DNA from: an uncultured Armatimonadetes bacterium
GTDB lineage: Bacteria; Armatimonadota; Armatimonadia; Armatimonadales; Armatimonadaceae
Assembly (NCBI GenBank): GCA_903924445.1
Contig: CAIYBQ010000128.1
Coordinates: 1-45,765, forward strand
Reading direction: 5' to 3'
DNA: 45,765 nucleotides
The notes beneath the pieces were generated by a model. It worked only from the letters and a program-made list of their open reading frames with translations, did not search any database and had not been told where the DNA came from. The position numbers were made by a program, and so were the translations under genes. This document shows, piece after piece, positions 1,123 through 38,263 of this stretch; position 1 is the stretch's first letter, and each line of letters starts with the position of its first letter.

Positions 1123-1180
1123 TCCCTTGTTGGTAAGCTGCGTTAGATGGTTCTCAGTCACTGCGTCAAATCCGGTTTCC

Positions 1181-3654: not shown

Positions 3655-4427
3655 CGGCGGTCGCGGCGTTGAAACTCACGAAGTGTGTCAACGAGCTGAG
3701 GCGTTCTGAAGTCGGGCCATCGGGTTTCTACGACCACGATCTCTGCGTAAGCAATCTGCCAAAGCAGATAGTTTGAAATACGCATGTCGCCAGCTGTTCT
3801 AACCAATAGATCCGGGTCAGGCAGTCCAGCCGTGTAAAGTCCATCGCTGAAGACGTCAGCCGTGATTTCATCAACTGAAATTTCGCCGCTTAGAACGAGT
3901 GCAGCAGCGCGCTTTGTTGCCCGCAAAATCTCATCCCGCGAACCATAGTTCAGACAAATGTTCAGAACCAAGCCCGTATTCGCACGTGTCAGCTCGATGT
4001 GACGGGCGAGCTCATCCTGGAGGGCTTTCGGGAGCGTCGTAAGGTCGCCGCTAAACATCATCCGGACGTTGTTTGAATGCAGCTCCATCAGCTCACGCTT
4101 GGCGCCTTCGATAAAGAGAGACATCAAACCATCCGTCTCATCCTTTGGACGGCTCCAGTTTTCTGTCGAAAATGCATAGAGCGTCAACGCACCGATACCG
4201 AAGTCGCTAGCCGAGCGGACGATCTCACGGACGCTTTGATAACCCTGATGATGCCCAAGCAGGCGGGGCATCCCACGCTCACGCGCCCATCGGCCATTAC
4301 CATCACAAATGATGGCGATATGCCGTGGAAGACGGCTCGGATCGATTTCATCCGGAAGAACGGCAGAGGTTCGCTTGCTCATGTTTGGTTCACTTTGCTG
4401 GGCAAAGTAATACTCAGACTTAACCAC
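3612..4427 (-). CDS. uppS: Undecaprenyl (isoprenyl) diphosphate synthase, cis-prenyltransferase
   Basis: Motifs: HIAIICDGNGRWA, FSTENWSRP, LVRTAGDMRISNYLLWQIAYAE, RRDRRYGG. GTG 4427 follows GAGGGG. ATG 4382 (MSKRTS...) is an alternative start. Confidence 0.92.
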   Translation of the reverse strand: MVKSEYYFAQQSEPNMSKRTSAVLPDEIDPSRLPRHIAIICDGNGRWARERGMPRLLGHHQGYQSVREIVRSASDFGIGALTLYAFSTENWSRPKDETDGLMSLFIEGAKRELMELHSNNVRMMFSGDLTTLPKALQDELARHIELTRANTGLVLNICLNYGSRDEILRATKRAAALVLSGEISVDEITADVFSDGLYTAGLPDPDLLVRTAGDMRISNYLLWQIAYAEIVVVETRWPDFRTPQLVDTLREFQRRDRRYGGVVNVRGAAKS

Positions 4428-4452
4428 AAACCCCTCTCGGATGCAAGCGGTT

Positions 4453-12895: not shown

Positions 12896-14356
12896 TTAGT
12901 GCTTGCCGGTAACCCGGTCGAGCTGTGCAAGGGCGATGAAGTAGTCGTACTTGCTATTGACTGCATTCGTCTCGGCCTGTGTGAGCGCTGCTTGGGCATC
13001 GTAAACGGCAACCTGCGTATCGACACCTTCGCGGTACCGAACGCCAGCGAGGCGGAATGCTTCACGTGCTTCGTTGAGTCCAGCGGCACTCGTAGCGATG
13101 CGTTCATGGGCATCTAGAACCGCAATATGTGCCTGAATAACTTCCGTTTCAATTCCGCGGGCAAACTGGTCTGCTTGGATGGCAGCACGACGTTCATCCG
13201 CATGGACTGAGTCTGTGGTTGCACGGGTCACACCGCCATCTAGTATCGGCTTTTGGAAGACGAGCGTAAGGCTACCAGTTGCTTGCTGATTCGCAACCAG
13301 CGCTGGGCTTGGGTTGTAGTTTCCGTTGAGCGACACGGCAACAGAGCCATTCATGCCACCCTTTTGATAGCGGGTGTTATGAGATGCCATTTTAGTGCTC
13401 AGGCCTGCGGCAATCGCTTCTGGGCGATGCTTCTGCGCAAACATGACCAGGTCCTTGACTGATGCTGTTGGGAGCGCTGGAATCGCGATGTCATCCGGTT
13501 TTGTGGGAGCGGTAAGTTTGAACTCAGTGGTCGGTTCAACTCCGATCGCAAGTGCAAGGGATGTCCGCTGAATCTGGGCCTGATTCCGTGCCGTCGTCAG
13601 CTGCTGTTGATCGTTGGCCACTTGGGTCTTCGCGCGGAGCACATCGTAGGCCGCGACAACTCCATTACGTAGCTGTGCCTCGGCAACAGCCAGCTGTGCT
13701 TTTGAACGATCAAGGTTAGCGGCTGCGATGTGAACCAGCGAGTCTGCACGCAGTGTCACGTACCACTGATTTCGGACGCTGAGGGCGATGGTGTCCTTGG
13801 TACGGAGGATGTCTTGTTCTACGATTAGAACCTGTGTGTCGCCGATGTAATCTGCCAGTCGGATTGTTCCGGTTACATCTACAAGCTGCGTTAGGCTCAT
13901 TTGTACCGAATTCTGGTTCAGATCAATGTTGCTGCCAAAGACATTTCCACCGGTGTCACCTGTTCCACCCCCACCTGTTTGCCGACTGCGTGTCGGTCCG
14001 GCGAGGTTAATAGGAACAGAGCCAGGAGGCTGGATTTGTAGACCGATTGGAAATGGGTTTTGAATCGTGCCTGTTGCACCACCAGCGCCGCCACCACCAA
14101 ATGCCGCTCCCAAGCCCGACAGGCGGGTATAGCTGGCGGTTGCACGTAAGGTCGGCGACTTAGCAGGACCCAGTACTTGGGTGATGGTGTTCTTGGTTTT
14201 ACGTAATGATTCCGAGGCCAGCCGGATGTCTGGGTGCTTCTCGAGCGCTGCGGCAACAGCCTGATCCACAGATGAAATAACATCTGCGGCGTGAATCGGG
14301 GATGCAAGCGTAACGAGGGACAAGGATGCGGCGATTAATGCGTAGGGACGGGACAT
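12896..14356 (-). CDS. TolC-like outer membrane efflux/channel protein (OEP family) with a Gly-rich insertion
   Basis: Signal peptide MSRPYALIAASLSLVTLASPIHA follows GGAAGG. Two coiled-coil repeat halves end in YREGVDTQVAVYDAQAALTQAETNAVNSKYDYFIALAQLDRVTG. The track ORF (to 14452) over-extends the N-terminus. Confidence 0.75.
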   Translation of the reverse strand: MSRPYALIAASLSLVTLASPIHAADVISSVDQAVAAALEKHPDIRLASESLRKTKNTITQVLGPAKSPTLRATASYTRLSGLGAAFGGGGAGGATGTIQNPFPIGLQIQPPGSVPINLAGPTRSRQTGGGGTGDTGGNVFGSNIDLNQNSVQMSLTQLVDVTGTIRLADYIGDTQVLIVEQDILRTKDTIALSVRNQWYVTLRADSLVHIAAANLDRSKAQLAVAEAQLRNGVVAAYDVLRAKTQVANDQQQLTTARNQAQIQRTSLALAIGVEPTTEFKLTAPTKPDDIAIPALPTASVKDLVMFAQKHRPEAIAAGLSTKMASHNTRYQKGGMNGSVAVSLNGNYNPSPALVANQQATGSLTLVFQKPILDGGVTRATTDSVHADERRAAIQADQFARGIETEVIQAHIAVLDAHERIATSAAGLNEAREAFRLAGVRYREGVDTQVAVYDAQAALTQAETNAVNSKYDYFIALAQLDRVTGKH

Positions 14357-14399
14357 AGTTACCTTCCAGCGGACAAGAGGTATCCGCTCTATCACAACG

Positions 14400-15203
14400 T
14401 TAGATACTGAAAAGGATTGCACGAACTTTGCTCCAATCATCAGCGGAATCATCCGGATTGATTTGGATTACATGAACATCAGAGTCGATGGGCAAGACAA
14501 TGGATTCACAGAGATCCTCCAAAAAGGGGCCATGGGTTACATTCGCTGATCCAGACCGATGTATATTCCCAAATCTGTCATCCAACTGACCAACGCTGGA
14601 CACCTTCCGGTCATTTATGATCTGTCCGATGTGGTAAACGAATGGACCTAATACTGGAATCCGTGAAATGAGATAGTGGTGCTTCGACTTCTCCGGGGCG
14701 TATTCTGGATTGAGCAGGGTTAGCGACAGGGGCGTCTGAGCTTTGTTAGCAACTTCAAGTGCAACCGATGCTGCATAGCCTGTAGCAACTAGAGCCGTAA
14801 TCGATGGAAACTGGGAAAGAATTTCCTGTACGTGGTCGGCGTGCATTTCGATGTTGTATTTCGTGACGGGTCTGTCACTGCGGCCATATCCGAGAAAATC
14901 GACCGCAATCACGCCATCTGCAGATACATCCGTCATCAGGGCTTCGTAATCAGCCATACTGCAACCCGGCAGCAAATCATGCAGGAGCAGCGCACTCGGC
15001 TCTTCACCAACCTGTTGTGTGCACAGGTCTCCCTCGGGAGCTCCGAAGTACTTGATTCTGCTACGTTTAAGACGTTGTTTTGAGAGGGGAGCTGCGAGCT
15101 CAATCAGTGCATTGGTAACGGCCATCGCCGTAATGGCTGCCACAACATACTGAATAACTTTGTTGGATCGGCGTTTACGACGTCTGAATTGAGCGGTTGA
15201 CAT
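14400..15203 (-). CDS. Membrane-anchored alpha/beta-hydrolase-fold protein, with no canonical nucleophile elbow seen
   Basis: The N-terminal basic stretch plus TM helix reads RRRKRRSNKVIQYVVAAITAMAVTNALI. LLLHDLLPG...VIAVDFLGYGRSDRP is typical of alpha/beta hydrolases. The expected GxSxG position reads LVATGYAASVA. Confidence 0.6.
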   Translation of the reverse strand: MSTAQFRRRKRRSNKVIQYVVAAITAMAVTNALIELAAPLSKQRLKRSRIKYFGAPEGDLCTQQVGEEPSALLLHDLLPGCSMADYEALMTDVSADGVIAVDFLGYGRSDRPVTKYNIEMHADHVQEILSQFPSITALVATGYAASVALEVANKAQTPLSLTLLNPEYAPEKSKHHYLISRIPVLGPFVYHIGQIINDRKVSSVGQLDDRFGNIHRSGSANVTHGPFLEDLCESIVLPIDSDVHVIQINPDDSADDWSKVRAILFSI

Positions 15204-15336: not shown

Positions 15337-15414
15337 TCCAGTGGAAAAGGCCGGGAGATGCGGAGTGGATCACACTGCATGCTCACGGCAAGCCATGAAG
15401 GAGTACTTGGCTCT

Positions 15415-16338
15415 ATGAACTCATCGCTGAGGTTTGGAAGTAGGAATCGAGCAGGCTTTACCCTGATCGAGCTTCTTGTTGTTATTGCAATCATTGCGAT
15501 TCTCGCAGCGATTTTGTTCCCAGCATTCGCTGGTGTACGGGAATCCGCGCGTCGCAGCTCGACGATGACCAATATGTCCAAGATTGCGCAGGCAGTAGCC
15601 GCGTATGAATTGGACAACCGTGAGTACCCTGAGTACTTGTTCGGACCTGCTGTTTCCCAGGCTGATGGAACACCGTTCGGAGACGCTCCTTACTACAGCA
15701 TGAAGGATGCAGCATCCATCGTAAACCGAGGAACGCCCATCGGACCGCTGCCGACTTCCACTGTAGCTGCACGCATCCGACGCATCTACTCTAAGGGGCT
15801 ATATCCCCAGTACATCCGGGATTTGGATACATACTCTTCACCTAACAATGCGGTTGCCACTCCAAGCGGCGCAGAGGATGTTGCAATCGTTGGTCGTTAT
15901 CCAACCTATGACCCGACCAATGGGGTTATGTCGCGTGTCGTTCCTGGCACGATGGTCGCGTTGCCTTTCTACACGTACGATGCCTTTGACATCAGTCCAA
16001 AGGTCACGAGTCTGATCGAAAACAAGATTTCGAAGACCGACTTCGTTGCCCGCTACAGCCGTGCCTGGTATCCAGTCACGACGACGGGTGCGCCCGGGGA
16101 TGGCGTTCCACCATCTGGGACATCGGATGGCGAGCGTGCTGCCAAGTATCGCAAGCAGCTCATTTGGCGCCAGCCACCGAATGACACGGTGCTTACCTAT
16201 ACGACCCACCACGTTCCATACGGCAAAGTTCTCGTCGTCTGGTTGAGTGGAACCGCCAAGGTGATTGATACCAAGCGCTTTAATGCACTGGTTGACAGCG
16301 CAGGCGACATCAAAGGGTATGAACTCGGACCTAACTAA
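15415..16338 (+). CDS. Prepilin-type N-terminal cleavage/methylation protein, GspG/major-pseudopilin-like (DUF1559-style N-terminus), 307 aa
   Basis: [14 protein letters not shown]|[35 protein letters not shown] carries a canonical class III signal (Gly-1, Phe+1, Glu+5). [16 protein letters not shown] resembles the GspG YxLDNGRYP motif. SD GAAGGAG is at 15397-15403. The protein has no Cys. Confidence 0.8.
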
Positions 16339-16363: not shown

Positions 16364-16406
16364 CGGCTAACGCTCGTCACACAGGCAACGGAATAGGTAG
16401 GAATTG

Positions 16407-18299
16407 ATGCAATCTGGCAGGTACAGACCCATGATGAACACGAAGAAAGTACACAACGGCAAACGGGCGGCATCGCTCGTCGAAGTCATGGTTGTTCTCG
16501 TCGTCATCCTGATTGGCGTGTTTGCAATCATCCGTGTGTTTCCACTTGGACTTGGCTATCTGGGAACTGCATCCCGGCGTACGATTGCCGTTCGCTTGGG
16601 TCAGGGCATGATGGAGCAGGTAAAGTCGGATTCTGAAAACCTGCCCGATGCTGTCACATACACATACTGGGACAACGGGGCTCCTGTTACGGTCGTTTCC
16701 GAAGACCCTGATGATCTCACGAACCGTGCAGATGGCAATCCGTACTTCTCCGATGTCAACAAAACCCGATTTATTCAAGGTGAGGCGATTAAGATTGGTT
16801 TGCCGACGCCTGGCAACTACGCATCCGGCTACTTTCACAACGTCAAATTCGGGCCCATTTACATGGATCCACAGTTTGGTGACCCTGCTGTTGCTCCTGC
16901 CGGCGTAAACCCGTATCTGTCAGTCTATTCGGGAGCGCTTGATGCCCGAAATAGCCAGGCCGACTCGACGAACGGTCAACGGAGCCCGCTCGCGTATCGC
17001 GGTGCGCTCCGCAGCGCACGCTCTTATGTACTGGATCCCGGTACGGATGGCGGCGGCGCGTACATGCTGGTTCTGCCATCATCTCTTGACCGCTACTTCA
17101 AGGTTGAGTATCTCGTCCTTGTCGATGACGGCTCCGATGACAGTGGGCTGAATGTTCGCCTCGAAACAGAACAGCTGCTCGTACCAGCAAATGCGTTCGC
17201 TTGGGTCAAGCTGCAAAATGTTGCACCGAACGAGTCGATATCGCCAGGTTCTGACATCGTTACCCGAACGTTCCGTCGCCTGCCCGCCGGTACGACATGG
17301 TCAGCCGATGACCCATACGAGTACAAGTTGGCAAGTGCGAACATTTCTGGTGCGCCAGGATCGACGTCCTATGCGAATCTTGGACAGCTAGCCTTCAATC
17401 CGGCTGGAGCAAACTTCACCGAAGATGTAGCCGTTGGTCCCCGTGCCTTCGTTGCCTATGTCGATTACGCGGTGCTTGACTGGCATATCATTCGGGATGA
17501 CCGAGATGTGCCTAGCTCACTGCCAGATGTTGCAGGAGCAGTGCCGGTACGCCTAAGCCTTGCAAAGCTGAAGCGTATTGGGGACACCAATCCTGACAAC
17601 ACGTTCTATGATGGACTCTTCCCACCTGCGGACACTGACCCGACAGCAAACTTTGACATTCGTGTCATCCGCTTGGATACAGGTGTCGTCCTGACGCAGG
17701 GTGAGCATGATCTTCGATCCACAACCGATGCCAATGCGGACTATTGGGTGCGTGATGGCAAGGGTGGAACATGGGATGCAGGCCTTGTCTATCTGAACGT
17801 CAATCGTGTGCAGCCTGGTACGCCGATTCGTATTCTTTACAAAGCCGATGGCGAGTGGGCAGTTGCGTTGCAGAAGGCAGTCGCGACCTACCGAGCCTGG
17901 AATCAATCCCAGCTGGGACGTCCTCCGCTATCCGGCACTGATGGCAATGTTCAGTTCGGTGATCCAACGCGGTTTGGAATTGAAGGGACGCGTCTCTACT
18001 TTGCACGTAGTGAAGTAAACAAGGCTGTCACGGCTCGCTTGGAGCTGGTGGATGCCGCCGGGCAACACACGCGTACAGCGCCGCTTCAGGTTCCGATTTC
18101 CAGCACGGATGGCGATTATGCCACCGCAGACCTTTCACGGTTTATTCCGGCAGGCGTAAGCGACTGGCGAATTGTGGATGGTGCTGTCAAGGGTGTCAGT
18201 GTCAAGGTTAGGGTGATCTGGAAGGATCGAACCATTGATTCTGCGCCATGGCAGATTCAAGATATGGATTCTTACGTCACACAAGGAGTAGTGCAATGA
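16407..18299 (+). CDS. Giant minor-pilin/pseudopilin-like protein with a GspI/PilV-like N-terminus (630 aa)
   Basis: The N-terminus MQSGRYRPMMNTKKVHNGKRAASLVEVMVVLVVILIGVFAIIRVFPLG resembles GspI/PilV (xFSLIEVLVALxVLxIGLLG). SD AGGTAGGAA lies 5-8 nt before ATG 16407. The rest has no domain I recognise. No Cys. Confidence 0.6.
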   Translation: MQSGRYRPMMNTKKVHNGKRAASLVEVMVVLVVILIGVFAIIRVFPLGLGYLGTASRRTIAVRLGQGMMEQVKSDSENLPDAVTYTYWDNGAPVTVVSEDPDDLTNRADGNPYFSDVNKTRFIQGEAIKIGLPTPGNYASGYFHNVKFGPIYMDPQFGDPAVAPAGVNPYLSVYSGALDARNSQADSTNGQRSPLAYRGALRSARSYVLDPGTDGGGAYMLVLPSSLDRYFKVEYLVLVDDGSDDSGLNVRLETEQLLVPANAFAWVKLQNVAPNESISPGSDIVTRTFRRLPAGTTWSADDPYEYKLASANISGAPGSTSYANLGQLAFNPAGANFTEDVAVGPRAFVAYVDYAVLDWHIIRDDRDVPSSLPDVAGAVPVRLSLAKLKRIGDTNPDNTFYDGLFPPADTDPTANFDIRVIRLDTGVVLTQGEHDLRSTTDANADYWVRDGKGGTWDAGLVYLNVNRVQPGTPIRILYKADGEWAVALQKAVATYRAWNQSQLGRPPLSGTDGNVQFGDPTRFGIEGTRLYFARSEVNKAVTARLELVDAAGQHTRTAPLQVPISSTDGDYATADLSRFIPAGVSDWRIVDGAVKGVSVKVRVIWKDRTIDSAPWQIQDMDSYVTQGVVQ

Positions 18300-20503
18300 T
18301 CAATCGCAGTGCATTGATGCCGGTTGAGCTGCAATCTGTACAAGTCCTTGGTAAACGCCAAGCATCTGTTGCAATGCGCTACGCGCGGTTGTCCCGTGCC
18401 TTTACGCTCACTGAGCTCCTTGTGGTTATCGCAATCACAACAATTCTCCTCGGATTGTTGTTTGTGCCAATCATCCAAGGCTTCAACATCACACGCCGGG
18501 CTGCTGCTGAGACCGCAGCGCAGGCTGCTGTCCGGACTGGTCTCGAACGGATTTCCCGTGACTTGTCACAGGCTGTCTATGTCTTTGACAACAGCGCAAC
18601 GCCGATTTTGATGCCACTTTCACGCACATTTCCTATCGGTCCGGGCGGGGCTAACACCAACCAACCCCATATTCTGTTCGCGAAGATTGACTTTGTACCT
18701 CGCGGTGGAAAAGCACCTTCGGCGAGCGTCATAGACCCGACGACGGGTGAGCCAATGTCTGGGAAGACGCTGACATTGCCGCTGGCAAACGGAACACGGG
18801 TCATTCGGTACTTTCTTGGACTCCGACGTAACCTCGATGCAGCCGGTGCTGTCAAGCCGTATCTGAACCAATATGAGTTCAGCTCACGAGCGGATGGTGG
18901 CAACCCTGACAATGAGCATAATCCGCTCATCGTCTACCGGGCTGAGTTTGATCCTAAGGATCCTAATCTCTTTGACCTTGCCAATTACGGTAGTGTCGTC
19001 GATGGAGATGGCGGCTTTAACGACCCGGCATTTTTCTACAACACAAATCCTGCGCCAAATGGCCGCTCCTACGCACAGAACTGGAGAGACATCGCGAGTC
19101 CTCTGGTTGACTCTGATAAGGCAGATATGCTCGCGTGGCGCCGTGATGGCTCCGGTGCGCTCGTCACAGAAGCTCCATTCCGAACGCTTGTGACATTCAC
19201 ACCAGGAACGATTGTCGGCGATACCGCGACGCCTGGATTCATGAATAATGCAGCGGCGGAAGCGCCTGGTGCTGTGCCAACACGCTACAGAACCAAAAAT
19301 GGACAGTGGGCGCTTCCATATAGCGTAACGTTCTACCGCGCAGCGGGTGGGGCAGGACAGTCGCGTCCATCGTTTGGTGAGCTTCGTATCAGGTTTGAGA
19401 ATGAGCCTCAAGTCGATGGATCTACACGCCTCCGTGTCGTACCGACGGCAGCATCCGGAAGCCTTTCAGTAACACCTGAGCAGTTCTACACTGCGATTTC
19501 GCCAACGAGCGGAAAGTTGTTCGTCAAGACTCCGAACCTGTCGTTCCAGGTAGATGCGCGTACTGGCGCCATTGAAACTGGTTTCCAGCCGGTGGCTGGT
19601 ACAGGCGGCGGTGTTCCAATGCTGAACGCTGGCGGTGTGATTGGACCGATGACCGCTAGTGTTTATCCGCTGCGTGGTGATTTGATTCCATTGATTATGC
19701 GGATGGTCTCTCGGGATCCAAATGCTGGGACAAATGGAGTTCCCACGAATCAGGGTCTAACTGCGATTGCACCGTTCGGTCTTGGTGATGTAGCACCGTA
19801 TTACCCGCTCTCTGGCGCGACGTTACCTGTGGCGACTGCATCCCCAATGCAAGTCTTTGGCAATGTAGTAGGAGGCGCGATTGCATCGGGCGGCGGTTTG
19901 ATGATCACCCCAGGCAGCGAGCGTGTGCAGGCTCCGGATCTCCAACAGGGAAGTTCGTCAATCGCAAATCTCGTCACTTGGTACCGTGCTGCTGGTGCTA
20001 CTACATCAATCGCGAAGAAGGCTACACAGCTGGATGATGTTCTTGACGCATCCGGTGGTATCCGTAAGCGATGGACAGTAACGGGTGGACAACGCAATTA
20101 CATCTTGGACCAAGATACGCAAGTCAATCAGAGCGCGATGTTGCTATTCGATGAACCGAATGGTCCAGGATTGCCAGCCAAATCAATCACTGATGGGAAC
20201 ACAATCGCTGAAAGAGAAGTCAGACTTACCTATCTCTGGCAGAACAACTATGCACGACGCATTGGTGGTGATCAGAATGGATGGCCTGTAGATGCATCCG
20301 ATCATACACTCATCGATCTCGCTGGTGGTGCTACGAATGGCAAACAGACGTTAGTTGTCGAACCGGATGTTGTCAAAGTCGATTACAGCACTCGTTCACA
20401 GCTGGTGATTCAGTACGGTGTGAATGTCTATGATGGTGCGAGTAAGCGTGCAACAACAATGCAGCTTTCTGACCGCGTTAAAGTCGGCAATTTAGGACGG
20501 TAG
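18296..20503 (+). CDS. Giant minor-pilin/pseudopilin-like protein with a GspJ/PilW-like N-terminus (735 aa)
   Basis: ...MRYARLSRA|[28 protein letters not shown] has Phe+1 and Glu+5. A perfect SD, AAGGAG (18283-18288), sits 7 nt before ATG 18296. That ATG overlaps the upstream stop (ATGA). ATG 18374 is an alternative start. No Cys. Confidence 0.68.
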   Translation: MINRSALMPVELQSVQVLGKRQASVAMRYARLSRAFTLTELLVVIAITTILLGLLFVPIIQGFNITRRAAAETAAQAAVRTGLERISRDLSQAVYVFDNSATPILMPLSRTFPIGPGGANTNQPHILFAKIDFVPRGGKAPSASVIDPTTGEPMSGKTLTLPLANGTRVIRYFLGLRRNLDAAGAVKPYLNQYEFSSRADGGNPDNEHNPLIVYRAEFDPKDPNLFDLANYGSVVDGDGGFNDPAFFYNTNPAPNGRSYAQNWRDIASPLVDSDKADMLAWRRDGSGALVTEAPFRTLVTFTPGTIVGDTATPGFMNNAAAEAPGAVPTRYRTKNGQWALPYSVTFYRAAGGAGQSRPSFGELRIRFENEPQVDGSTRLRVVPTAASGSLSVTPEQFYTAISPTSGKLFVKTPNLSFQVDARTGAIETGFQPVAGTGGGVPMLNAGGVIGPMTASVYPLRGDLIPLIMRMVSRDPNAGTNGVPTNQGLTAIAPFGLGDVAPYYPLSGATLPVATASPMQVFGNVVGGAIASGGGLMITPGSERVQAPDLQQGSSSIANLVTWYRAAGATTSIAKKATQLDDVLDASGGIRKRWTVTGGQRNYILDQDTQVNQSAMLLFDEPNGPGLPAKSITDGNTIAEREVRLTYLWQNNYARRIGGDQNGWPVDASDHTLIDLAGGATNGKQTLVVEPDVVKVDYSTRSQLVIQYGVNVYDGASKRATTMQLSDRVKVGNLGR

Positions 20504-20508
20504 TCAAG

Positions 20509-23500
20509 ATGCACGGAAACACGATCCCCGGGTTTAGGACAAACCGACGACATCGCGAAGGTGGACAATCGCTCACGGTTGCCGTCGTTGTGATGTTCCT
20601 CCTGCTGTTTATTGCTGGACTTTTCATTGCGTTGGTCATTAACAACCTTCGCAACACAAAAGATGCAGCACAGCGCGTTAACGCGACAAAGTATGCTGAA
20701 GCCGGTCTTCGTTATCTCGATGAGCAGTTAACTAAGTCCCCAGAGGGTGCTGACTGGCGTCCAAACCCGAACGATCCACTCGGTGACCAGAACCCGGCGG
20801 CTGATCCTACAGATGCAGTCAACGATGTCGATCCAAATGATCCAGACTACGAATGGCTCGCGGAAGTGTTTCCGGGGCGTGATGGCTACGCCGCAGATGG
20901 TACTCCTCAGGACTTTGGACCGTATACGCGCGTTGAGTTTGGTGGACCAACACCGTCGCAAGGCAATCTTGGTGGTCGGGCACTCGTTCGCGTCGCCTAT
21001 CGTCCTGTAACAAAGGACGCTCTCAATTCCACGCCTGACCAAAAGTACCTACGACTTGACTCCGTCGGACGTGTAGGAAGCATAGATCCTGCCGACCCGA
21101 CGACATTTGGCAACACAGAAGCAAAAGGCCTTCGCCGTGAGCTGTTAGCTTACAAGGCAATCGGCTTGACGGATTACATCCGCTGGTTTACCAATAAGGA
21201 CAATCGAACCGTCCCTGCGACCATCGGGTCAGTCAATACCGTTGTTGACACCCCGGTTGACACCGCTGGTGGAACCCGACCTGTTACAGCGCCTGTTGAG
21301 CGTGAGATTATCAACTACTTTGATGGTCCTATCCGCGCAAATGGCAATCTTGCGTTCTACGGTGTCAATGTGCTTACCTTGGATGCCCGCCGAAACGATG
21401 CTGTTGAAGTGAATGGAACAATCAGCCTTAATGGTCTGGATGATGCGGCGGCGACAGTAACAGCGACAGATCCGACCCGGGTGTACCTTAATGTTGCAGC
21501 TAGCGGCGTACCTAGCGTGCTCCCAAGTCTGTCCGCAAACTTTACGACCATCAGTGGTCTGGTACGTGACAATCCATCCGGCGGTGATGTAACCGAGCTC
21601 AACGGCTTGGATAAGAACCTCCGAACGGTCGCGCGTCTTGAAGCACCTCGCCTCGATGAACAAATCGGACCGAATGGCCTTACCCGCTATCGGTCGCTGA
21701 CACAGTTTTCAGAACCCCTTGCGTCAAAGCATATGACGACATCAGATGCAAGTGACCTCGCAGCTCTCGGCGCAGAGCTTCCTGGACAGGTTGGCTGGGG
21801 CAGCGGTCTCTACATCAACAACCGTGAGGATGTGCAACGGGAATCCGAAAGCCTCCTTGGTGCCTATTCCCTTCGGAGCGATTGGTTGAATCCAGGTGGT
21901 TCTGCGTACTGGCGTGGCGACTTTAAGTATGTGCCACCGGCAGTCACAATCACATTCCATCCTCGCTATGTCAAGATTGACCGTTCACCAACAAGCGTTG
22001 GCCGTTCGCCATTCCGAAATCCATCAGGCCGCCGGTTGTCCGGTAGTAGCACGATTATTCGCTACTCCGGGCCCAGCGATACCGCTCCAGCGGCTGGACT
22101 CAATCAAAATGGCAACCTGGTCTACAAATTTAAGGGATATCCAACCGAGCAAGCCACAGTCAACGGCGTAACCGTAAACAAGGGCGAACTTGTAATTTTC
22201 GCTGAAGGGAACGTCCGTGTAAAGGGAACCGTCGGTGGACGGGATCCAGAAACGGGTGAGCTCTACGTTCGCAACATCACCCTGGTATCCAATGAGAATA
22301 TCTATGTCGATGGAAACCTCCTCAGAGATAATCTGTCTGCATCCAACCCCGGCGACTTTGCGGTTCAGGGGCAATCATCCATTGCTCTGCTGGCACGGAA
22401 CTATGTCGCAGTAAACTCCACGCAGTTCATGTCACCTGATGAAGGACTTGTCAAAGCAGAAGAAGTTGGCTCGGATGCAAAGGCCTTGTTCCTTTCCGCC
22501 AATGCTGCGAACCGGAGCCATGGCGTACGCATCAATGCGGGTCCAATTGATGACAAGGGGACATCACCTTGGGGTGGGACGACTCCGTTCTACACACCTC
22601 GACTGTTCATGCGTCATTCTGCAGAAACAAATGCTGGCACGGCAGTGTCCTTCTCCTTGAATGACAATAACGGTGTTCCGAATCCATTGGTTCTCAATGT
22701 TCCCGGACGGGTGATTGGCGCTGGAAACGCTACATTGCTCCTTGGTGGACCAGCTCAAAATGCCGGTGCATACATCGACGATGTAATTCAGCTCGACACC
22801 AACCTGATGTTCCCGACGCACACCAGCCCGGTTACGGTGGGGAGTGCCGTTGGTATAGACAATGTCCTCAGAGTCTACTTTGATATCAGTGCAGGAATCA
22901 GCAACCAATCGGACTACCGAGTGACACGTATTGGTGTTGCTCCACTTGATGTCCGTGTCGAAGCTTTGATGTATGCGCAGGACCGGTCGTTCTTTATCAT
23001 CCCCGGACCATGGTTCAACCCAGATCCAAATGATACGTACGAGCGGTACGCGGTGAGTGATCCAAATCGCGGTGGGGCGCCTCGCTTGTCGCGCAGCGGT
23101 GATGCTCCTGGTAACGCCCGGATCAACCCAAGGTATCCGTTCTACGGACAACCGATGGACATCCGCTTGACGTTCTTCGGAGCCATCGCGGAAAATATGC
23201 CAGCTGAAATCGGAGACCAGGCTGCGTGGCTCGAAAAATGGGGATGGATTCCACATTACTACGGTTCCACCGGTCTTCCAGTGGCGCCTGGTTACAGCAG
23301 CTCTGGTGTGGTTGAACAAACCATCCATGGACAGAACTCGCCGCAGGCTAGTTTGAGAGGTCCACAAGGTTCTGGAGCTGGAATCGTCTACGAATATGAT
23401 TCACGATGGGAAGCGCCTGGAACCATTCGCTTGGATGCTTACAAGCGCCAGCTTCCACTCGCACCACGGCTTCCAACAGCCCCTGGATTACTCTACGTTG

Positions 23501-23523
23501 GCGAAGATCCACAGAATCGGTGA
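20509..23523 (+). CDS. Giant PilX/GspK-like protein (1004 aa)
   Basis: MHGNTIPGFRTNRRHREGGQSLTVAVVVMFLLLFIAGLFIALVINNLRNTKDAAQRVNATKYAEAGLRYL matches the PilX_N/GspK pattern: basic leader, hydrophobic helix without Glu+5, then a YxAEAGL helix. It starts 5 nt after the upstream stop. No Cys. Confidence 0.55.
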   Translation: MHGNTIPGFRTNRRHREGGQSLTVAVVVMFLLLFIAGLFIALVINNLRNTKDAAQRVNATKYAEAGLRYLDEQLTKSPEGADWRPNPNDPLGDQNPAADPTDAVNDVDPNDPDYEWLAEVFPGRDGYAADGTPQDFGPYTRVEFGGPTPSQGNLGGRALVRVAYRPVTKDALNSTPDQKYLRLDSVGRVGSIDPADPTTFGNTEAKGLRRELLAYKAIGLTDYIRWFTNKDNRTVPATIGSVNTVVDTPVDTAGGTRPVTAPVEREIINYFDGPIRANGNLAFYGVNVLTLDARRNDAVEVNGTISLNGLDDAAATVTATDPTRVYLNVAASGVPSVLPSLSANFTTISGLVRDNPSGGDVTELNGLDKNLRTVARLEAPRLDEQIGPNGLTRYRSLTQFSEPLASKHMTTSDASDLAALGAELPGQVGWGSGLYINNREDVQRESESLLGAYSLRSDWLNPGGSAYWRGDFKYVPPAVTITFHPRYVKIDRSPTSVGRSPFRNPSGRRLSGSSTIIRYSGPSDTAPAAGLNQNGNLVYKFKGYPTEQATVNGVTVNKGELVIFAEGNVRVKGTVGGRDPETGELYVRNITLVSNENIYVDGNLLRDNLSASNPGDFAVQGQSSIALLARNYVAVNSTQFMSPDEGLVKAEEVGSDAKALFLSANAANRSHGVRINAGPIDDKGTSPWGGTTPFYTPRLFMRHSAETNAGTAVSFSLNDNNGVPNPLVLNVPGRVIGAGNATLLLGGPAQNAGAYIDDVIQLDTNLMFPTHTSPVTVGSAVGIDNVLRVYFDISAGISNQSDYRVTRIGVAPLDVRVEALMYAQDRSFFIIPGPWFNPDPNDTYERYAVSDPNRGGAPRLSRSGDAPGNARINPRYPFYGQPMDIRLTFFGAIAENMPAEIGDQAAWLEKWGWIPHYYGSTGLPVAPGYSSSGVVEQTIHGQNSPQASLRGPQGSGAGIVYEYDSRWEAPGTIRLDAYKRQLPLAPRLPTAPGLLYVGEDPQNR

Positions 23524-23549
23524 TGGATACAGGATTAGGAACGATAACC

Positions 23550-26500
23550 ATGCAATGGCTTGATCGGAAAATCACACAGGTAAAGGCTGGCTGGATTGCA
23601 ACGTGCAGCAAAGGGCTAATCGCGCTTGCTGCATTATCCTGTCTTGGCACAGCATCCAGCGCTGATATCACGACCTACTCCACCAACAAACGTGTCTTTA
23701 AAGTTGGTGTACTCCTTGTGGATTCAACGGGATTCAACTTCGCGACTAATCCACCTGCACCACTGCCGGGTGGACCTGAAAATCCAGATCCTCACGTATT
23801 CTATGTTGCTGATTCACGACAGGACCTCAAGCCCGCTAACTGGGAGCTGATCAACCCATTGGCACCGAAGACTGTCACATCGGATATCTATGCTCGCTGG
23901 AGCCAGCCCGGTACAGGACGTGATCAAGCACATCCTTATAAGGTAGGCCAGCAAGTCACCAAGGATATGGCTTGCTACTGGGAAGTGAAGCTTTCGTCTG
24001 CATCAGTAGCTGATCTAGCACAATTTGACTTGCTGTTCGTAACAAACCATCGCACTGTTTTCCTAACACCGGAAGACCGCGAAAAGCTCCGCAAAGTCGT
24101 GGATGCAGGTGCTGTTTTGTGGATGGAAGACTGCTCCCGGATGCGCCTTCATCCGCGGGCACCATTTTTCCTTGAAGATGTTCAGTTTACGAGTGGTGGT
24201 GGTCAGGGCAAGCCTGTCGTTTATATGCCGGGCCATCCCCTGCTGAATCAGCCGTATGCACTCAGCGCACGTGACATCAATCGACTTGGTGATGCTAACT
24301 ATGGTGGGGGACGCGCAATTGCCTCGCATCGCCCTGGTGCTCTGCTTGCAACCGATGCTCCTCTCCTAGCACGTCCAAACCCGCAGGTCTTGCACAACGT
24401 GGTTGGAAACTCGGCAGTCGTTTCATCGACTGGTGAGTATCTCCCGTACATCGCTGCCGGCTCCTATGGAAGTGGTGGAGTCCTGATCACTGCAGGTGAC
24501 AGTGGCTGCGACATAAATGACTATGTCGGTGGTGTCAATATCGGAGCTGGTGGAAACTCCGGCGCATATTCAGGGAAGAATCTCTGGGCTGCACAAAGCG
24601 AAGATCTGCGCTTCGTTTACAACGCGATTGCTTGGGGGTCATCAAGCACCTCCTATCGTAAGAACAACCGTCGCGTTGGAGCCAGCCTCGAAATGGTTGG
24701 TGCTCCACTAATCGATGGCTTTGCTGTTGTTCCGACTTCCGTTGATCCTGCGTTCTCATCGGTTACCTCTCCGCTTGTAACACAAGGTCTTACGATCGCA
24801 TCTGGCGTAAGCGGCGGAGTCGGATTTGTGCGTGCCTACATTTCGCAGCCGTCCTTGGCTGCTGGTGACCGTGGACTTCCCGACCTCATCTTTGGCACGG
24901 CTTGGGATGAAGTATGGCGAGCGCCTATCGGAAGCGCAGGTGTCCCATCTACACCTGTATCCGCTCAGATCTACGTTGGGCTTCCTGCTCCAGTAGAAGT
25001 TGTCTTTGTGACGCTCGGGGATGGAACTCTCGCACGTGTTCCGATGCAATCCAAAGATGACGCGGGTAATCTGCTTGCGCTTCCTGTCGTTGAGACGAAT
25101 GCTCCAGTAGCAATCGGATCGCCATCTACGTACGAGAAGACAGCCTACAACGCTGCTCCAGCACCCGTCGTTTTCGAAAATCGTGTCTATGTAGTTGAGC
25201 CATCGGGATTAGTCCGCTGTGTGGATGCCCGAACGCTGACGACACTCTGGTGGAGCCATACCGAAGCGCTGAACCCAAGCGTAACGCCAAAGGGAACTCC
25301 AACACTGGGCGTCTCGCGACAGGATGTTGGGCAAGTTGGGTTTGGCCGCCGGGATGCATCGATTGCAAGCCGGTCAAATGGCAATACAAACGACGTGATG
25401 CTTTACACACCAGTTGTTGATGCAGACGGCAATGCGCATATCTATGCTTACTGGCTTGGAACGCGCCATGAAGTGGTTCGCACCGATGAGGGCGCGAGTG
25501 GAAACTACCGTACCCGTGTTGCACTGGACAACTCAGCGCCGGTAAACAATCGCCACTACGTAGCGCTCGGTAGGCCTGAGTTCATTACGCCAAGAGTTCG
25601 GGTTTATGACAGCGCTGATGCGATGAATCTCGGCGTATTGTCGACATCCTATTTCGGGACGTTCCGAGCGGATGGCTCAGGATTTGTTGAGGTACGTGGT
25701 ACGAACGGTGATGTTCCAGTCGGTCCTCGTCCTGTGATTTCCGTTGACTACGATGTTATGTATGTCACTGAGGATGCGACGCCTCCAGGCCTCGAAGAGG
25801 GAATCGGTGCACGCCTCGGACAACCATTGGTCATTCCTCAGCTGGATGTGACGCCGGTATCGAGTGGTCTTGACACGGTCGCAATGACAAACGAAGACCT
25901 CCTCGTCTTTGCTGTCCGTCAAACCAATGACCGCAACGGCTCTGGGCTCACAAGCATCATAGGAGTCAATGAGCAGTTCTCTGTTGGTGCGACAAAGTTC
26001 CGTCAGAATGTTGCTATTCTCGAGGACGTAGCTCCTATTAGTGCGCCTGTTGACCGACGAGTGGTCACCGAACTGCCGACATTGCGTAACCGTTTGATCT
26101 TTACTGGCGGAATCAGTACCAGCATGGGGGCAATCCTGGCTCCTGCCTGGGAAGGCCTTACCAATGTTCGTATTATGGGAAGCCCTGCAGTTTCTGCCGA
26201 TGGCATCTCATATGTCGTTGCACAGGCAACATCCGTTGCTAACAACGGTACGGTCTCTGTCATGATTGCGCTTCAGATGGACAAGGATGTCACACTCAAC
26301 CTCCCTGAAGCATACAACCCTGCCTACCCAGTGTCCGTTCGTCAATACAATGCGTTGACGTATCCGGCAACAGGTTCAGATCCTGTCCAAACGACGACAG
26401 CCATTCTTCCTGCGAACGCGGTGGACAATGTTGTTTCGTCTGTTCAGCTGACTGGCGATGCAAAGCGGGGCAAGATAACCGTCACCGATATGCGTCATCC

Positions 26501-28514
26501 AAGTGGTGTCCGCTTCTCGAGCACACAGTCATTTGTCGTCTCGTATGTTCCTGCTGGTACACAGAATCCAGTAACGGTTGTTCTAACTCCGCTACCAGGA
26601 AGCGCTGGTGCACCGGTTACGACAACAGACGACGAAGATGGCTCGTCCTTGCGATCTGTCGGGGGAGCATACTCACCTGTGCTCTGGTACTACATCCTGC
26701 CTGGAGCGCCGACGTCATCTCCTACAGTTAGTGGTAACCATGTGTACTTCGCTATCGGACAGAACATCGTAGCCCTCGATGTTAACCCTGCCGAAACGGA
26801 TCCTTCCGTCCGTGTTGGATTTGGTGAGCAGGTTATCAACGTTGCAAGTTCCATCGTAAATTCCGCAACATCCCAACCATTGACAGTCTCAACAAATCAC
26901 CTTCGCTGGGTCAGAAATGCGGGTGCGGTCATCGCATCCCCACCGGTTGTCGGCGGAAATGTTGTTGCAGTATCTACAGCTGCGGGGCCCGTTGTCTTCC
27001 AGGCAAGCACAACTCTGGTCACCGATGCAAAGCGTATTTTGGAAGTTGGTGCGGATGGTGCAGCGACGTGGGTGATGGACGGAACGGTCGACACCGATGT
27101 TGTAGGCGGCGAAGTTCCGGTATACGATCCTAGCCTCCCGGATGGCATTGCCAATCCACCAGCAAATGGCCGACGTGCAGTTCGCCGAAGTCAGTTGGCA
27201 CGGCCATCGGTTGCACGAAAGCTCTCTGGACAGGACTACCTCATCGCTGACACCGGTAACAATCGTGTGTTACGAGTTGATCGCGGTGGGCGAATCCGCT
27301 GGGAATTGACTACGGTACGTGACACGTTTAAGATTCTGTCTTCCTCTGACAGTACATTGTTGAACAACCCGACGGATGTTCATCTGTCGCTTATTCCAAC
27401 CGCAGACCCGACTGACCCAACAAAGGCTCCGATCGGATATGAGGTTCACTATCTCATCGCTGATGCTGGCAACTACCGTGCAATTGAAGTTGTCGATTAC
27501 CGCGACCTCAATGGAAACATTCGTACCATTGGTGGTGATCGTGGTGAAGGTGTTGTTGTCTGGGTTTCCCGCCTCAAGTCCCGTGAAGGTAGAAACCTAC
27601 GGATTCAAAAGCTGCAGAGGATACAGACCAGCGTCGGCGGCGTTACAGGCATTCCACAAATCGTGGCGGTCGTCGCGAATGCTCAGACGGCAGGTGTCGG
27701 TGGGTTAGATATCGATTCGTCTGGCGGTGCCGTCATTCGACTCGAATATCGACCATACAACACGTTTACGGTGCTTCGTAATGCAGCCGGCGGAGTCCTC
27801 CCGCCTGCTCCATGGCCAGCATCAGGGACTCCATCGGGTTCCGGCTATCCGTGGCCAGCTGCGGCTGCAGGAGCATCCGCACAGACGACTGAACCAGTTC
27901 TGAACGGAACTGTCACCGCAACGATACAAGAGGTCGTCCTGCCAAATGGCGAGACGTATAAGATAACTTCTCCGACCTACTTCGAGCAGGTGACTTTGCC
28001 GAATGGCGTGGGTGGAACCAAGCCGGTTTACATGATTGCTGATGCCAATGGTGTGTATCAGATTGAAGATGGACCGATGGGACGGCGTATCGTTACCTGG
28101 TACTTCAATCAAAGCCATTACAATACGATGAACCTGAATCCGGCATTTAGTGCGGATGGCATCAATCCAAGACTGCTCGTGGTTCCGGGATTGCCAGCAA
28201 ATGAACTTCCAAGGTTCCAGCCGACGGCGATGCGAAGATTGCTGAATGGACGCTACCTGATCACGAATAGTGCGGTTGGCCAATCCTCGGTCTTCCAAAG
28301 TGGACAGTTCTCAGGTGAAGTTCTTGAGGTGATTCCTCAGTTCAACCCAGATGGCACCCCAAATGGTGGGCGCTTCGGCGGATTCTCCGTTCCACAGGTA
28401 ATCAGTCGACCTAATGGACTCGGCGTTGGACGCAATACAAACGTTCAGTGGATGGGCACAACATCCAATAACACATCACTAATCGACCAACCTCTCTTCG
28501 GAGATCGTCTGTGA
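23550..28514 (+). CDS. Secreted giant protein (about 1654 aa): DUF4159-like (class I GATase-like fold) N-terminal region, then PQQ-like and NHL-like beta-propeller repeats
   Basis: Signal peptide MQWLDRKITQVKAGWIATCSKGLIALAALSCLGTASSA|D, with SD TAGGAA 8 nt before ATG 23550. ATG 23523, overlapping the upstream TGA, is the alternative start. FDLLFVTNHRTVFLTPEDREKLRKVVDAGAVLWMEDC resembles the DUF4159 core. Blade-like motifs: NRVYVVEPSGLVRCVDARTLTTLWW, GNHVYFAIGQNIVALD, YLIADTGNNRVLRVDRGGRIRWEL, HYLIADAGNYRAIEV. Confidence 0.6.
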   Translation: MQWLDRKITQVKAGWIATCSKGLIALAALSCLGTASSADITTYSTNKRVFKVGVLLVDSTGFNFATNPPAPLPGGPENPDPHVFYVADSRQDLKPANWELINPLAPKTVTSDIYARWSQPGTGRDQAHPYKVGQQVTKDMACYWEVKLSSASVADLAQFDLLFVTNHRTVFLTPEDREKLRKVVDAGAVLWMEDCSRMRLHPRAPFFLEDVQFTSGGGQGKPVVYMPGHPLLNQPYALSARDINRLGDANYGGGRAIASHRPGALLATDAPLLARPNPQVLHNVVGNSAVVSSTGEYLPYIAAGSYGSGGVLITAGDSGCDINDYVGGVNIGAGGNSGAYSGKNLWAAQSEDLRFVYNAIAWGSSSTSYRKNNRRVGASLEMVGAPLIDGFAVVPTSVDPAFSSVTSPLVTQGLTIASGVSGGVGFVRAYISQPSLAAGDRGLPDLIFGTAWDEVWRAPIGSAGVPSTPVSAQIYVGLPAPVEVVFVTLGDGTLARVPMQSKDDAGNLLALPVVETNAPVAIGSPSTYEKTAYNAAPAPVVFENRVYVVEPSGLVRCVDARTLTTLWWSHTEALNPSVTPKGTPTLGVSRQDVGQVGFGRRDASIASRSNGNTNDVMLYTPVVDADGNAHIYAYWLGTRHEVVRTDEGASGNYRTRVALDNSAPVNNRHYVALGRPEFITPRVRVYDSADAMNLGVLSTSYFGTFRADGSGFVEVRGTNGDVPVGPRPVISVDYDVMYVTEDATPPGLEEGIGARLGQPLVIPQLDVTPVSSGLDTVAMTNEDLLVFAVRQTNDRNGSGLTSIIGVNEQFSVGATKFRQNVAILEDVAPISAPVDRRVVTELPTLRNRLIFTGGISTSMGAILAPAWEGLTNVRIMGSPAVSADGISYVVAQATSVANNGTVSVMIALQMDKDVTLNLPEAYNPAYPVSVRQYNALTYPATGSDPVQTTTAILPANAVDNVVSSVQLTGDAKRGKITVTDMRHPSGVRFSSTQSFVVSYVPAGTQNPVTVVLTPLPGSAGAPVTTTDDEDGSSLRSVGGAYSPVLWYYILPGAPTSSPTVSGNHVYFAIGQNIVALDVNPAETDPSVRVGFGEQVINVASSIVNSATSQPLTVSTNHLRWVRNAGAVIASPPVVGGNVVAVSTAAGPVVFQASTTLVTDAKRILEVGADGAATWVMDGTVDTDVVGGEVPVYDPSLPDGIANPPANGRRAVRRSQLARPSVARKLSGQDYLIADTGNNRVLRVDRGGRIRWELTTVRDTFKILSSSDSTLLNNPTDVHLSLIPTADPTDPTKAPIGYEVHYLIADAGNYRAIEVVDYRDLNGNIRTIGGDRGEGVVVWVSRLKSREGRNLRIQKLQRIQTSVGGVTGIPQIVAVVANAQTAGVGGLDIDSSGGAVIRLEYRPYNTFTVLRNAAGGVLPPAPWPASGTPSGSGYPWPAAAAGASAQTTEPVLNGTVTATIQEVVLPNGETYKITSPTYFEQVTLPNGVGGTKPVYMIADANGVYQIEDGPMGRRIVTWYFNQSHYNTMNLNPAFSADGINPRLLVVPGLPANELPRFQPTAMRRLLNGRYLITNSAVGQSSVFQSGQFSGEVLEVIPQFNPDGTPNGGRFGGFSVPQVISRPNGLGVGRNTNVQWMGTTSNNTSLIDQPLFGDRL

Positions 28515-38234: not shown

Positions 38235-38263
38235 AACGGCCCCTGAAACAGGGGCCGTTTTTT
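38235..38263 (+). terminator. Strong rho-independent terminator closing the six-gene operon
   Basis: aacggcccctg-aaa-caggggccgtt forms a perfect 11-bp GC-rich stem followed by a 6-T run (two T shared with the stem). It lies 23 nt after the stop at 38212. Confidence 0.88.

Follow-up and report, generated by a model that had tools for sequence, protein, structure and literature searches.

Three consecutive genes of an uncultured Armatimonadetes bacterium encode giant pilin-like proteins, which we call ORF2, ORF3, and ORF4 (ORF, open reading frame). They lie on the plus strand of contig CAIYBQ010000128.1 (assembly GCA_903924445.1), whose 45,765 nucleotides (nt) were analyzed in full and are called the window here, inside a six-gene operon (ORF1 to ORF6). 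Our analysis indicates that these proteins are probably core minor pilins of a type IVa pilus of Armatimonadota, in the positions of PilV/GspI, PilW/GspJ, and PilX/GspK, respectively. They are placed in these positions because of the gene order (a G/H-like pilin, then I, J, and K, then a big secreted protein) and because of the distribution of the glutamate at position +5 after the predicted cleavage site (Glu5).

ORF2, ORF3, and ORF4 are real genes rather than chance ORFs, since they have many relatives of matching length in the databases (58, 70, and 148, respectively) and a wide distribution across genomes, with an ORF4 relative encoded in 282 species-level genomes. The antisense ORFs of the region (e.g., 16377-16838 and 22564-23367, both on the minus strand) were taken as shadows of the conserved plus-strand genes. 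The start codon of ORF3 overlaps the stop codon of ORF2 (ATGA) and is preceded, 8 nt upstream, by AAGGAG. An alternative start at 18374 would give a protein of 709 amino acids (aa) with a more typical leader of 9 residues. None of the three window proteins contains a cysteine, and all are rich in Gly (8.9 to 10.4%), Val (7.6 to 10%), Asp (5.5 to 8.6%), Thr (6.2 to 7.9%), Pro (6.3 to 7.7%), Asn (4.6 to 7.0%), and Ala (around 10%). Turns rich in D and N are found at residue 108 of ORF4 (DPNDPDYEW), residue 203 of ORF3 (NPDNEHNP), and residue 407 of ORF2 (PADTDPTANFD). The absence of cysteine is specific to this lineage and not a trait of the family, most ORF4 relatives having 2 to 3 of them. The original prediction, made from the sequence of the window alone, had seen in each protein a short basic leader with a hydrophobic helix like that of pilins, had noted this composition with its D/N-rich motifs, and had proposed an identity of the minor-pilin type. 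The sequence and the helices modeled by AlphaFold2 in ORF3 and ORF4 bear out the first point, and the composition is roughly as described. The identity is supported by the class III signals, the Glu5 pattern, and the position of the genes after pilB-pilT-pilC-pilD in relatives.

The N termini of the three families revealed a pattern typical of a pilus initiation complex. ORF2 reads NGKRA/ASLVEVMVVLVVILIGVF and ORF4 reads RHREGG/QSLTVAVVVMFLLLFIAGLF, the slash marking the predicted cleavage (KRA/ASLVEVMVVLVV and EGG/QSLTVAVVVMFLLLF), while the leader of ORF3 ends in RLSRA. The predicted sites are KRA/ASLVE in ORF2 and SRA/FTLTE in ORF3, both with Glu at +5, and EGG/QSLTV in ORF4, which lacks Glu5. 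In all aligned relatives, position -1 was occupied only by Gly or Ala (G/A counts of 30/22 for ORF2, 19/34 for ORF3, and 69/14 for ORF4). This small residue is followed by a hydrophobic stretch in all three families, as in class III signals. Since Gly and Ala alternate across the families, and Ala is in the majority in that of ORF3 (34/53), these alignments suggest that the cognate peptidase tolerates Ala at -1. Glu5 was conserved in all aligned relatives of ORF2 (53/53) and ORF3 (56/56). Of 83 sequences of the ORF4 family, 82 carry Gln at +1; at +5 this family has Val, Ile, Leu, or Ala and never Glu, which is the pattern of a cap. A pilin-like N terminus without Glu5 is a trait of GspK and PilX, and PilK/GspK/PilX homologs invariably lack this residue and are apical (PMC13533445; bioRxiv 10.64898/2026.02.12.705559). 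Since Glu5 is absent across its family, ORF4 would be the capping subunit.

The three families are large-bodied throughout the phylum. Their members measure 596 to 748 aa (ORF2), 646 to 827 aa (ORF3), and 860 to 1,148 aa (ORF4), showing that the large size is conserved in each family across Armatimonadota, and conservation spans the full length of the proteins, not only the pilin end. An exhaustive profile search with the ORF4 family retrieved 861 clusters at 50% identity, 505 of them with E ≤ 1e-30. The best 150 of these 861 clusters were all of Armatimonadota type, with about 525 to 1,200 aa (most of them >820 aa), and the shorter proteins among them matched only part of the profile. Named relatives were overwhelmingly from Armatimonadota (Armatimonas, Armatimonadaceae, Capsulimonadales, Chthonomonadales, and Fimbriimonadales), and one locus (L001), from a metagenome-assembled genome of an uncultured Armatimonadetes bacterium, shares 96% protein identity with the window. 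Some cassette contigs (L019, L029, and L068) and proteins (P0051, P0058, and P0069) are labeled Tepidisphaeraceae, Sedimentisphaerales, Propionibacteriaceae, Cytophagales, Fibrella, or Akkermansiaceae. These labels probably reflect mis-binning rather than true occurrence in other phyla, since the nr names of the same proteins say Armatimonadota.

Curated sequence models recognized these families faintly. The N_methyl model (Pfam PF07963, threshold of 21.2 bits) was passed by ORF3 (22.1 bits) and by the ORF2 ortholog (21.5 bits) of L031, a Chthonomonadia metagenome-assembled genome. The best curated match of ORF2 was PilV (TIGR02523; E = 1.1e-6; 29.2 bits versus a cut-off of 52.2; residues 24 to 83 only), a model matched at E ≤ 0.01 by 52 of 57 ORF2 relatives. 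ORF3 matched HpsC (NF038304; E = 1.9e-9; 37.5 bits versus a cut-off of 200) over its N-terminal ~75 residues and, more weakly, the Verru_Chthon cassette protein C (E = 3.4e-5, N-terminal only). Among the 59 relatives of ORF3, HpsC was matched by 54 and the Verru_Chthon protein by 50; the ortholog in Armatimonas rosea (P0136) is named "PulJ/GspJ family protein" by NCBI. The GspK model (NF037980) gave weak matches in 4 of 45 ORF4 relatives (best E = 0.022) and none in the ORF4 of the window. We rejected membership of ORF4 in the HpsA (NF038301) or Verru_Chthon cassette protein A (TIGR02600) families, which none of these 45 relatives matched at E ≤ 1 in the NCBIfam scan. ORF2, ORF3, and ORF4 passed no curated PilV, PilW, PilX, GspI, GspJ, or GspK model. 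They are therefore assigned to the PilV, PilW, and PilX slots by role and not by family membership. In a profile-profile comparison (hhalign), the three families shared similarity only over their N-terminal 60 to 135 columns, and the idea that the extensions are paralogous duplicates was rejected on this basis. An invariant D-P-T-T motif follows the first β-strands in the ORF3 and ORF4 families alike; its alignment between families by hhalign (59% probability) hints at a shared pilin-core element or a metal site.

The gene order is also conserved. We compared 80 loci, of which essentially all the sufficiently long ones kept the order ORF1 to ORF6, across Armatimonadia, Chthonomonadales, Fimbriimonadia, and Capsulimonadaceae, with median sizes of about 303, 631, 665, 950, and 1,607 aa for ORF1 to ORF5. 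The other junctions of the operon are also tight or overlapping in the window: 5 nt separate ORF3 from ORF4, the ATG of ORF5 overlaps the stop codon of ORF4 (TGATG), and the GTG of ORF6 overlaps that of ORF5 (GTGA). ORF1 is conserved before ORF2 in 47 loci, with 242 to 524 aa. It matched Pfam N_methyl (6.7e-10) and, at its N terminus only and below the cut-off, NCBIfam GspG (5.2e-13); judging from these matches, it is a candidate major subunit (GspG/PilA-like) or GspH/FimU-type adaptor. In 35 of the 47 loci with at least 3 kb of upstream DNA, the cassette is immediately preceded, in the same orientation, by genes for a PilB/GspE ATPase, a PilT/PilU ATPase, PilC, and an A24 prepilin peptidase. 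The PilT/PilU protein scored 514 bits on TIGR01420 (cut-off of 319), and the best matches of PilC were the type IV pilus PilC models. In L031 the block lies within positions 1-5338, and the 34 other loci carrying it include L024, L030, L034, L042, and L076. Because this pilB-pilT-pilC-peptidase block precedes the cassette in most loci, the predicted gene content points to a retractile, type IVa-like pilus machine as its partner. The block does not precede the cassette in the clade of the window (L001-L016) or in L057, L066, L071, and L079, the last two labeled Fimbriimonadia. In the clade of the window, an alpha/beta hydrolase gene and a TolC-like gene are found there instead, and since other genes occupy the site, the supercluster has probably been split in this clade.

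This neighborhood also bears on the best-surviving alternative, which we nevertheless judge distinctly unlikely: that the four pilin-like proteins form the short periplasmic pseudopilus of a type II secretion system (T2SS)- or Hps-like system. Acting as a piston, this pseudopilus would drive either an exopolysaccharide or the co-encoded ORF5 and ORF6 through a secretin, with the ectodomains docking the cargo instead of making up an exposed tip. Such a piston would fit the Sec signal peptides of ORF5 and ORF6, their translational coupling to ORF4, and their phylum-wide synteny. It would also fit the first ATPase of L031, encoded by a truncated gene, which scored 560.7 bits as GspE and 536.2 bits as PilB (both below the cut-off), and the ORF1 ortholog of the same locus, which passes Pfam T2SSG. 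Moreover, relatives of ORF3 are similar to HpsC, which is encoded in the polysaccharide secretion locus of cyanobacteria, and systems in Armatimonadetes were reassigned as T2SS by Denise et al. (PMC6668835). However, canonical T2SS lack PilT, whereas the cluster includes a true PilT/PilU and a PilC like those of type IV pili, and no gene for GspC, GspL, GspM, or a secretin was adjacent in the examined flanks. The Hps "pseudopilins" have themselves been reinterpreted as core minor pilins of type IV pili (bioRxiv 10.64898/2026.02.12.705559).

Past the helix region, ORF2, ORF3, and ORF4 had no sequence match in Pfam, NCBIfam, or the PDB. When the PDB chains were searched with single sequences and family profiles, only the N-terminal helix of ORF3 matched pilins; matches of the three proteins to nanobodies and immunoglobulin light chains (E of 0.1 to 0.8) were dismissed as noise. 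ORF2 carries a β-rich extension of about 570 aa after its pilin-like N terminus, without a family match. The other two proteins were modeled with confidence by AlphaFold2 from family alignments, ORF4 from 86 natural sequences and ORF3 in its 709-aa form. The ORF4 model (predicted local distance difference test [pLDDT] of 89.3; predicted template modeling score [pTM] of 0.90) shows a continuous N-terminal helix (residues 17 to 76), a loop rich in D, N, and P with a conserved DPDYxW, and four strands (140 to 216). Past residue 216 come about 740 aa that are mostly β (solenoid and sandwich) and short strands at 959 to 963 and 996 to 998. Its strand ladders carry conserved rung-like motifs (AEGNVRIRG and NGTIYIDGNLL). 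AlphaFold2 is reported to over-predict solenoids when the input is an artificial, perfectly repeated sequence (PMC11795689), which ORF4 is not. The ORF3 model (pLDDT of 84.8; pTM of 0.74) has a helix (12 to 65), strands with long loops, a large β-rich body, and a long C-terminal hairpin (666 to 703).

Both models were compared with known structures by Foldseek. ORF3 had no match at E ≤ 1e-3 in the PDB or BFVD (probabilities <0.15), and no GspJ/PilW structure was among its matches. For ORF4, the first PDB match was ComZ (6qvi_B; E = 1.2e-4), a weak one by template modeling (TM) score (0.09/0.16) and identity (12%). Many jelly rolls of the carbohydrate-binding module (CBM) families 6, 35, and 36 also matched over ~170 aligned columns, with probabilities of ~1.0 and TM scores on the target of 0.5 to 0.6, and tailspike β-helices appeared at low confidence. 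The large α-domain inserted in GspK was not present in the β-rich ORF4 model. The C-terminal ends of both families are strictly conserved. ORF4 and its relatives end in L-P-x-x-P-R-L-P-V-[AC]-P-G-L-L-Y-x-G-E, followed by a few residues at most, in which GLLYxGE (residues 993 to 999 of ORF4) is a C-terminal strand; all 59 ORF3 relatives stop at the same invariant Arg, with an invariant Asn three residues before it. In known systems, tip complexes are licensed by a C-terminal β-strand added to the sheet of a PilK-type subunit, a strand that is provided in cis, downstream of a large insertion, in GspK, CpaL, and ComZ, and in trans by PilY1/PilC or MshQ (PMC13533445). The strand order of ORF4 (helix, four strands, ~740 aa, conserved terminal strands) fits the ComZ-type topology, although the ComZ match itself is weak. 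Because of the strand order in both models and these conserved ends, the models suggest that the extra mass of ORF3 and ORF4 interrupts the pilin fold instead of extending its end. These results qualify what the original prediction had said of the extensions. The prediction had recognized no catalytic, repeat, or adhesin motif; for adhesins this held at the level of the sequence, and no enzyme family was found by Pfam, NCBIfam, or PDB sequence search, but the ORF4 model contains a jelly roll like those of CBM6/35/36, a recognizable fold with the character of an adhesin. The likeness to ComZ was retained in the top PDB match, the solenoid-like ladders, and the β-sandwich of ORF4, yet the match is weak. 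Novel folds grafted onto minor pilins were upheld in that no sequence family matched and ORF3 had no structural neighbor; grafting is at odds with the strand order, which suggests insertion, and novelty with the CBM-like fold of ORF4.

ORF5 and ORF6 complete the cassette as co-encoded giant secreted proteins. ORF5 is directly downstream of ORF4 in almost all loci, and its relatives carry DUF4159 (27/29), PQQ_2 (8/29), and NHL (5/29) domains. Its C-terminal end (Q-P-x-[FS]-A-D-R, then 0 to 3 residues) is conserved. Because of its position, Sec signal, propeller content, and conserved C terminus, ORF5 is plausibly a functional analog of PilY1 or MshQ, judging from sequence features, and not a member of their families. 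ORF6 is syntenic in Armatimonadia, with weaker matches in other classes, and had no Pfam or NCBIfam domain except a sub-threshold GEVED. Pfam and NCBIfam revealed no catalytic domain in any of ORF2 to ORF6.

Taken as core minor pilins, the proteins would work as follows; peptidase processing, tip location, order of assembly, ligand, and the role of ORF5 are what we infer in this model, from the biology of known type IV filaments, rather than observe. The class III signal and the hydrophobic alpha-1 helix would insert each protein into the inner membrane, where the prepilin peptidase would cut after the Gly or Ala at -1 in all four pilins. ORF4, without Glu5, would be the apical subunit capping the fiber, and ORF2 and ORF3, which keep Glu5, would dock beneath it to form an initiation complex of the I-J-K type. 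This complex would prime the polymerization of the fiber subunit (ORF1 or another major pilin) on PilC, driven by the PilB-type ATPase and reversed by PilT, and would end at the pilus tip. With less certainty, the ~2,100 aa of β-rich ectodomain may form one large tip head of ~250 kDa. The solenoid and the CBM-like sandwich would come from ORF4 and an unprecedented fold from ORF3, and ORF5, perhaps with ORF6, may be part of the head as well. This head would take over the part played by PilY1 in other systems, or add to it. It probably serves in adhesion or sensing, and its most likely ligand is a polysaccharide; the CBM-like module of ORF4 suggests glycan binding. The conserved C-terminal ends of ORF3, ORF4, and ORF5 would probably run back to the pilin sheets, where β-strand addition would hold the complex together. 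It is also conceivable, though we consider it unlikely, that ORF2 to ORF6 (~7,260 aa, ~770 kDa) form one tip organelle, larger than any described type IV filament tip and with largely unprecedented folds. A head of 770 kDa would be too big for a conventional secretin as a folded unit and would imply a new passage across the outer membrane, assembly outside the secretin, or a new retractable organelle specific to Armatimonadota, possibly a glycan-grappling or prey- or substrate-capture device.

Several observations weigh against the assignment to core minor pilins. The window itself holds no pilus machinery genes, so that the link to the machine rests on orthologous Armatimonadota loci. Neither ORF2 nor ORF4 reaches a curated pilin threshold; on N_methyl, ORF2 scores 15.9 bits (cut-off of 21.2) and ORF4 has no match. 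The matches to PilV, HpsC, and GspK are confined to the N-terminal 60 to 90 residues and fall far under the cut-offs. Whole-chain Foldseek searches with the ORF3 and ORF4 models recovered no GspI, GspJ, or GspK pilin domain, and the pilin β-sheet packed on alpha-1 is deduced from the order of the modeled strands only. The -1 residue is Ala in both ORF2 (16467-16469) and ORF3 (18398-18400) of the window, and Ala at this position is less efficiently processed than Gly in Pseudomonas PilA. The PilY1/PilC domain (PF05567) was found in none of the 29 ORF5 relatives. Finally, a folded head of ~250 kDa, or up to ~770 kDa with ORF5 and ORF6, would have to pass a secretin.

Some of these points would be explained if the proteins were bitopic envelope scaffolds in the periplasm or at the cell surface, for ORF5 and ORF6 for instance, which kept a pilin-like helix as an anchor and are neither cleaved nor polymerized. 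The low scores of ORF2 and ORF4, the Ala at -1, and the lack of a structural match to a pilin domain are in line with this idea. So is the number of PulG-like genes in Armatimonadota, which reaches dozens per genome (79 in Fimbriimonas [PMC4072686]), some of which may have been diverted. We regard it as very unlikely, since the strict G/A at -1 and a Glu5 that is strict in two families and absent in the third are hard to explain without processing and helix packing, and the cluster adjoins a prepilin peptidase and assembly and retraction ATPases in most lineages. Enzyme-bearing modular pilins, in which the solenoid of ORF4 would be a β-helix of the polysaccharide lyase or hydrolase type, as in phage tailspikes, that degrades or remodels a glycan, and adhesion would be secondary, are highly improbable: the Foldseek matches to CBA120 TSP4 (E = 4.3e-3) and Depo32 (E = 1.1e-2), the rung-like motifs, and the CBM-type modules, usual companions of glycoside hydrolases, speak for them, but the tailspike matches have low probabilities (0.04 to 0.63) and TM scores of ~0.1, the solenoid of ComZ is non-catalytic, and the sequence searches revealed no catalytic family.

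The features of the window are listed below. The divergent TolC-like protein encoded just upstream of the operon, identified from its match to OEP, confirms a diderm envelope; it carries an unusual Gly-rich insertion (GGGGAGGATG ... GGGGTGDTGG). A scan for sigma-70 promoters 5' of ORF1 found none, a result that is uninformative for Armatimonadota. At the other end, a strong terminator hairpin begins 23 nt past the stop codon of ORF6 and is likely the end of the operon. Further downstream, an ORF of 455 aa (39579-40946, minus strand) without a Pfam match is flanked by a NUDIX gene and by one encoding a PKD-domain protein. In L031, a gene for a Uma2-family putative endonuclease (4763-5338, plus strand) lies between the prepilin peptidase gene and the ORF1 ortholog.

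Features of the giant-pilin cassette and its surroundings in the window (positions in nt of the window; the slash marks a predicted cleavage site).
Feature	Position	Strand	Description
TolC-like outer membrane efflux protein	12896..14452	-	OEP 1.7e-39; divergent, just upstream of the operon
ORF1	15358..16338	+	326 aa; predicted pilin/pseudopilin; first gene of the operon; canonical class III signal, NRAG/FTLIELLVV
ORF2	16407..18299	+	630 aa; ATG start; probable minor pilin, PilV/GspI position
ORF3	18296..20503	+	735 aa; ATG start; probable minor pilin, PilW/GspJ position
D-P-T-T motif in ORF3	~18734-18745	+	Residues 121-124 of the 709-aa form
ORF4	20509..23523	+	1004 aa; probable capping pilin, PilX/GspK position
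D-P-T-T motif in ORF4	~21094-21102	+	Residues 196-198
ORF5	23523..28514	+	1663 aa; Sec signal peptide; DUF4159 and beta-propeller repeats
ORF6	28511..38212	+	3233 aa; GTG start; Sec signal peptide; last gene of the operon
Intrinsic-terminator-like hairpin	38235..38259	+	11-bp stem with 8 G-C pairs, then TTTT; likely operon end

Bulky modules on tip pilins are already established (ComZ, cyanobacterial PilX/HpsA, CpaL, GspK, CofB, and the modular pilins), and database annotators already call some relatives of our proteins pseudopilins, as in the case of the "PulJ/GspJ family protein" mentioned above; the cassette extends a known theme. Our literature search found no published description of it, and the genome paper on Fimbriimonas goes no further than counting PulG-like genes (PMC4072686). 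The novelty lies in the enlargement of all three core minor pilins together, phylum-wide and with two co-encoded giant secreted proteins, as well as extensions that match no sequence family and, in the case of ORF3, a modeled structure that matches no solved fold. Armatimonadota occur widely in soil, freshwater, and hot springs but are hard to culture, and their cell-surface biology is almost unstudied experimentally. The cassette would give the phylum a defined, conserved, and testable tip module of the type IV pilus. It would also imply that all three core minor pilins, and not just the PilX/GspK cap, can expand three- to five-fold while keeping the Glu5 logic. It offers a test case for two proposals, the replacement of the PilY1 plug by a solenoid-bearing PilX and the licensing of tip assembly by C-terminal β-strand addition, and it raises a concrete physical question, that of how so large a head would pass a secretin.

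The closest parallels in gene order are the initiation complexes encoded by fimU-pilVWXY1 in Pseudomonas, pilHIJK with pilC in Neisseria, mshDOPQ in Vibrio, and gspGHIJK/gspHIJK in T2SS (PMC13533445). As in ORF2, ORF3, and ORF4, the I and J subunits keep Glu5 while K lacks it, and the conserved C-terminal ends of the Armatimonadota proteins are compatible with strand addition in cis or in trans. In contrast, the subunits described here are 3 to 5 times larger, ORF5 has propeller repeats but no PilY1/PilC domain, and an extra protein of 3,233 aa is encoded downstream. ComZ, the tip pilin of the competence pilus of Thermus thermophilus (PDB 6QVI), is of the GspK/PilX type, has a pilin fold interrupted by a β-solenoid, is missed, like ORF4, by standard pilin detectors, and is argued to cap the fiber and bind the neighboring minor pilin (PMC6561018). 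ORF4 is nearly twice as long (1,004 versus 554 aa) and adds the CBM-like sandwich, and while the partner pilins of Thermus (PilA1-3) are small, the PilV- and PilW-position partners are giant here. The modular pilins (PilB and PilC of Streptococcus sanguinis, CofB/TcpB, and CpaL) also join a pilin module to bulky tip modules, among which lectins and CBMs recur (PMC8179133). Unlike these, the modules of the window carry no signature of InterPro or Pfam and would thus have escaped the published survey of modular pilins; the extra mass is apparently inserted in the fold and not carried on a flexible C-terminal tether, and three consecutive subunits are enlarged. The Verru_Chthon cassette A-D (TIGR02596, TIGR02598, TIGR02599, and TIGR02600) likewise combines uncharacterized pilin-like proteins with a very large protein. 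ORF1, ORF2, and ORF3 match its proteins D, B, and C, respectively, but weakly and at the N terminus (e.g., 23 bits versus 256.5), whereas protein A has no match and the cassette belongs to another phylum. Finally, the cyanobacterial PilX proteins (including PilX-EPS/HpsA) form with HpsB-D a core of the FimT/PilW/PilV/PilX type, in which the capping PilX bears a bulky solenoid (bioRxiv 10.64898/2026.02.12.705559), for which a role in place of the PilY1 "plug" and in polysaccharide binding has been proposed. HpsC is also the best NCBIfam match of the ORF3 relatives, although over only ~75 N-terminal residues. In the cyanobacterial set, great enlargement has been described for PilX alone, whereas the Armatimonadota cassette adds two giant Sec-dependent proteins.

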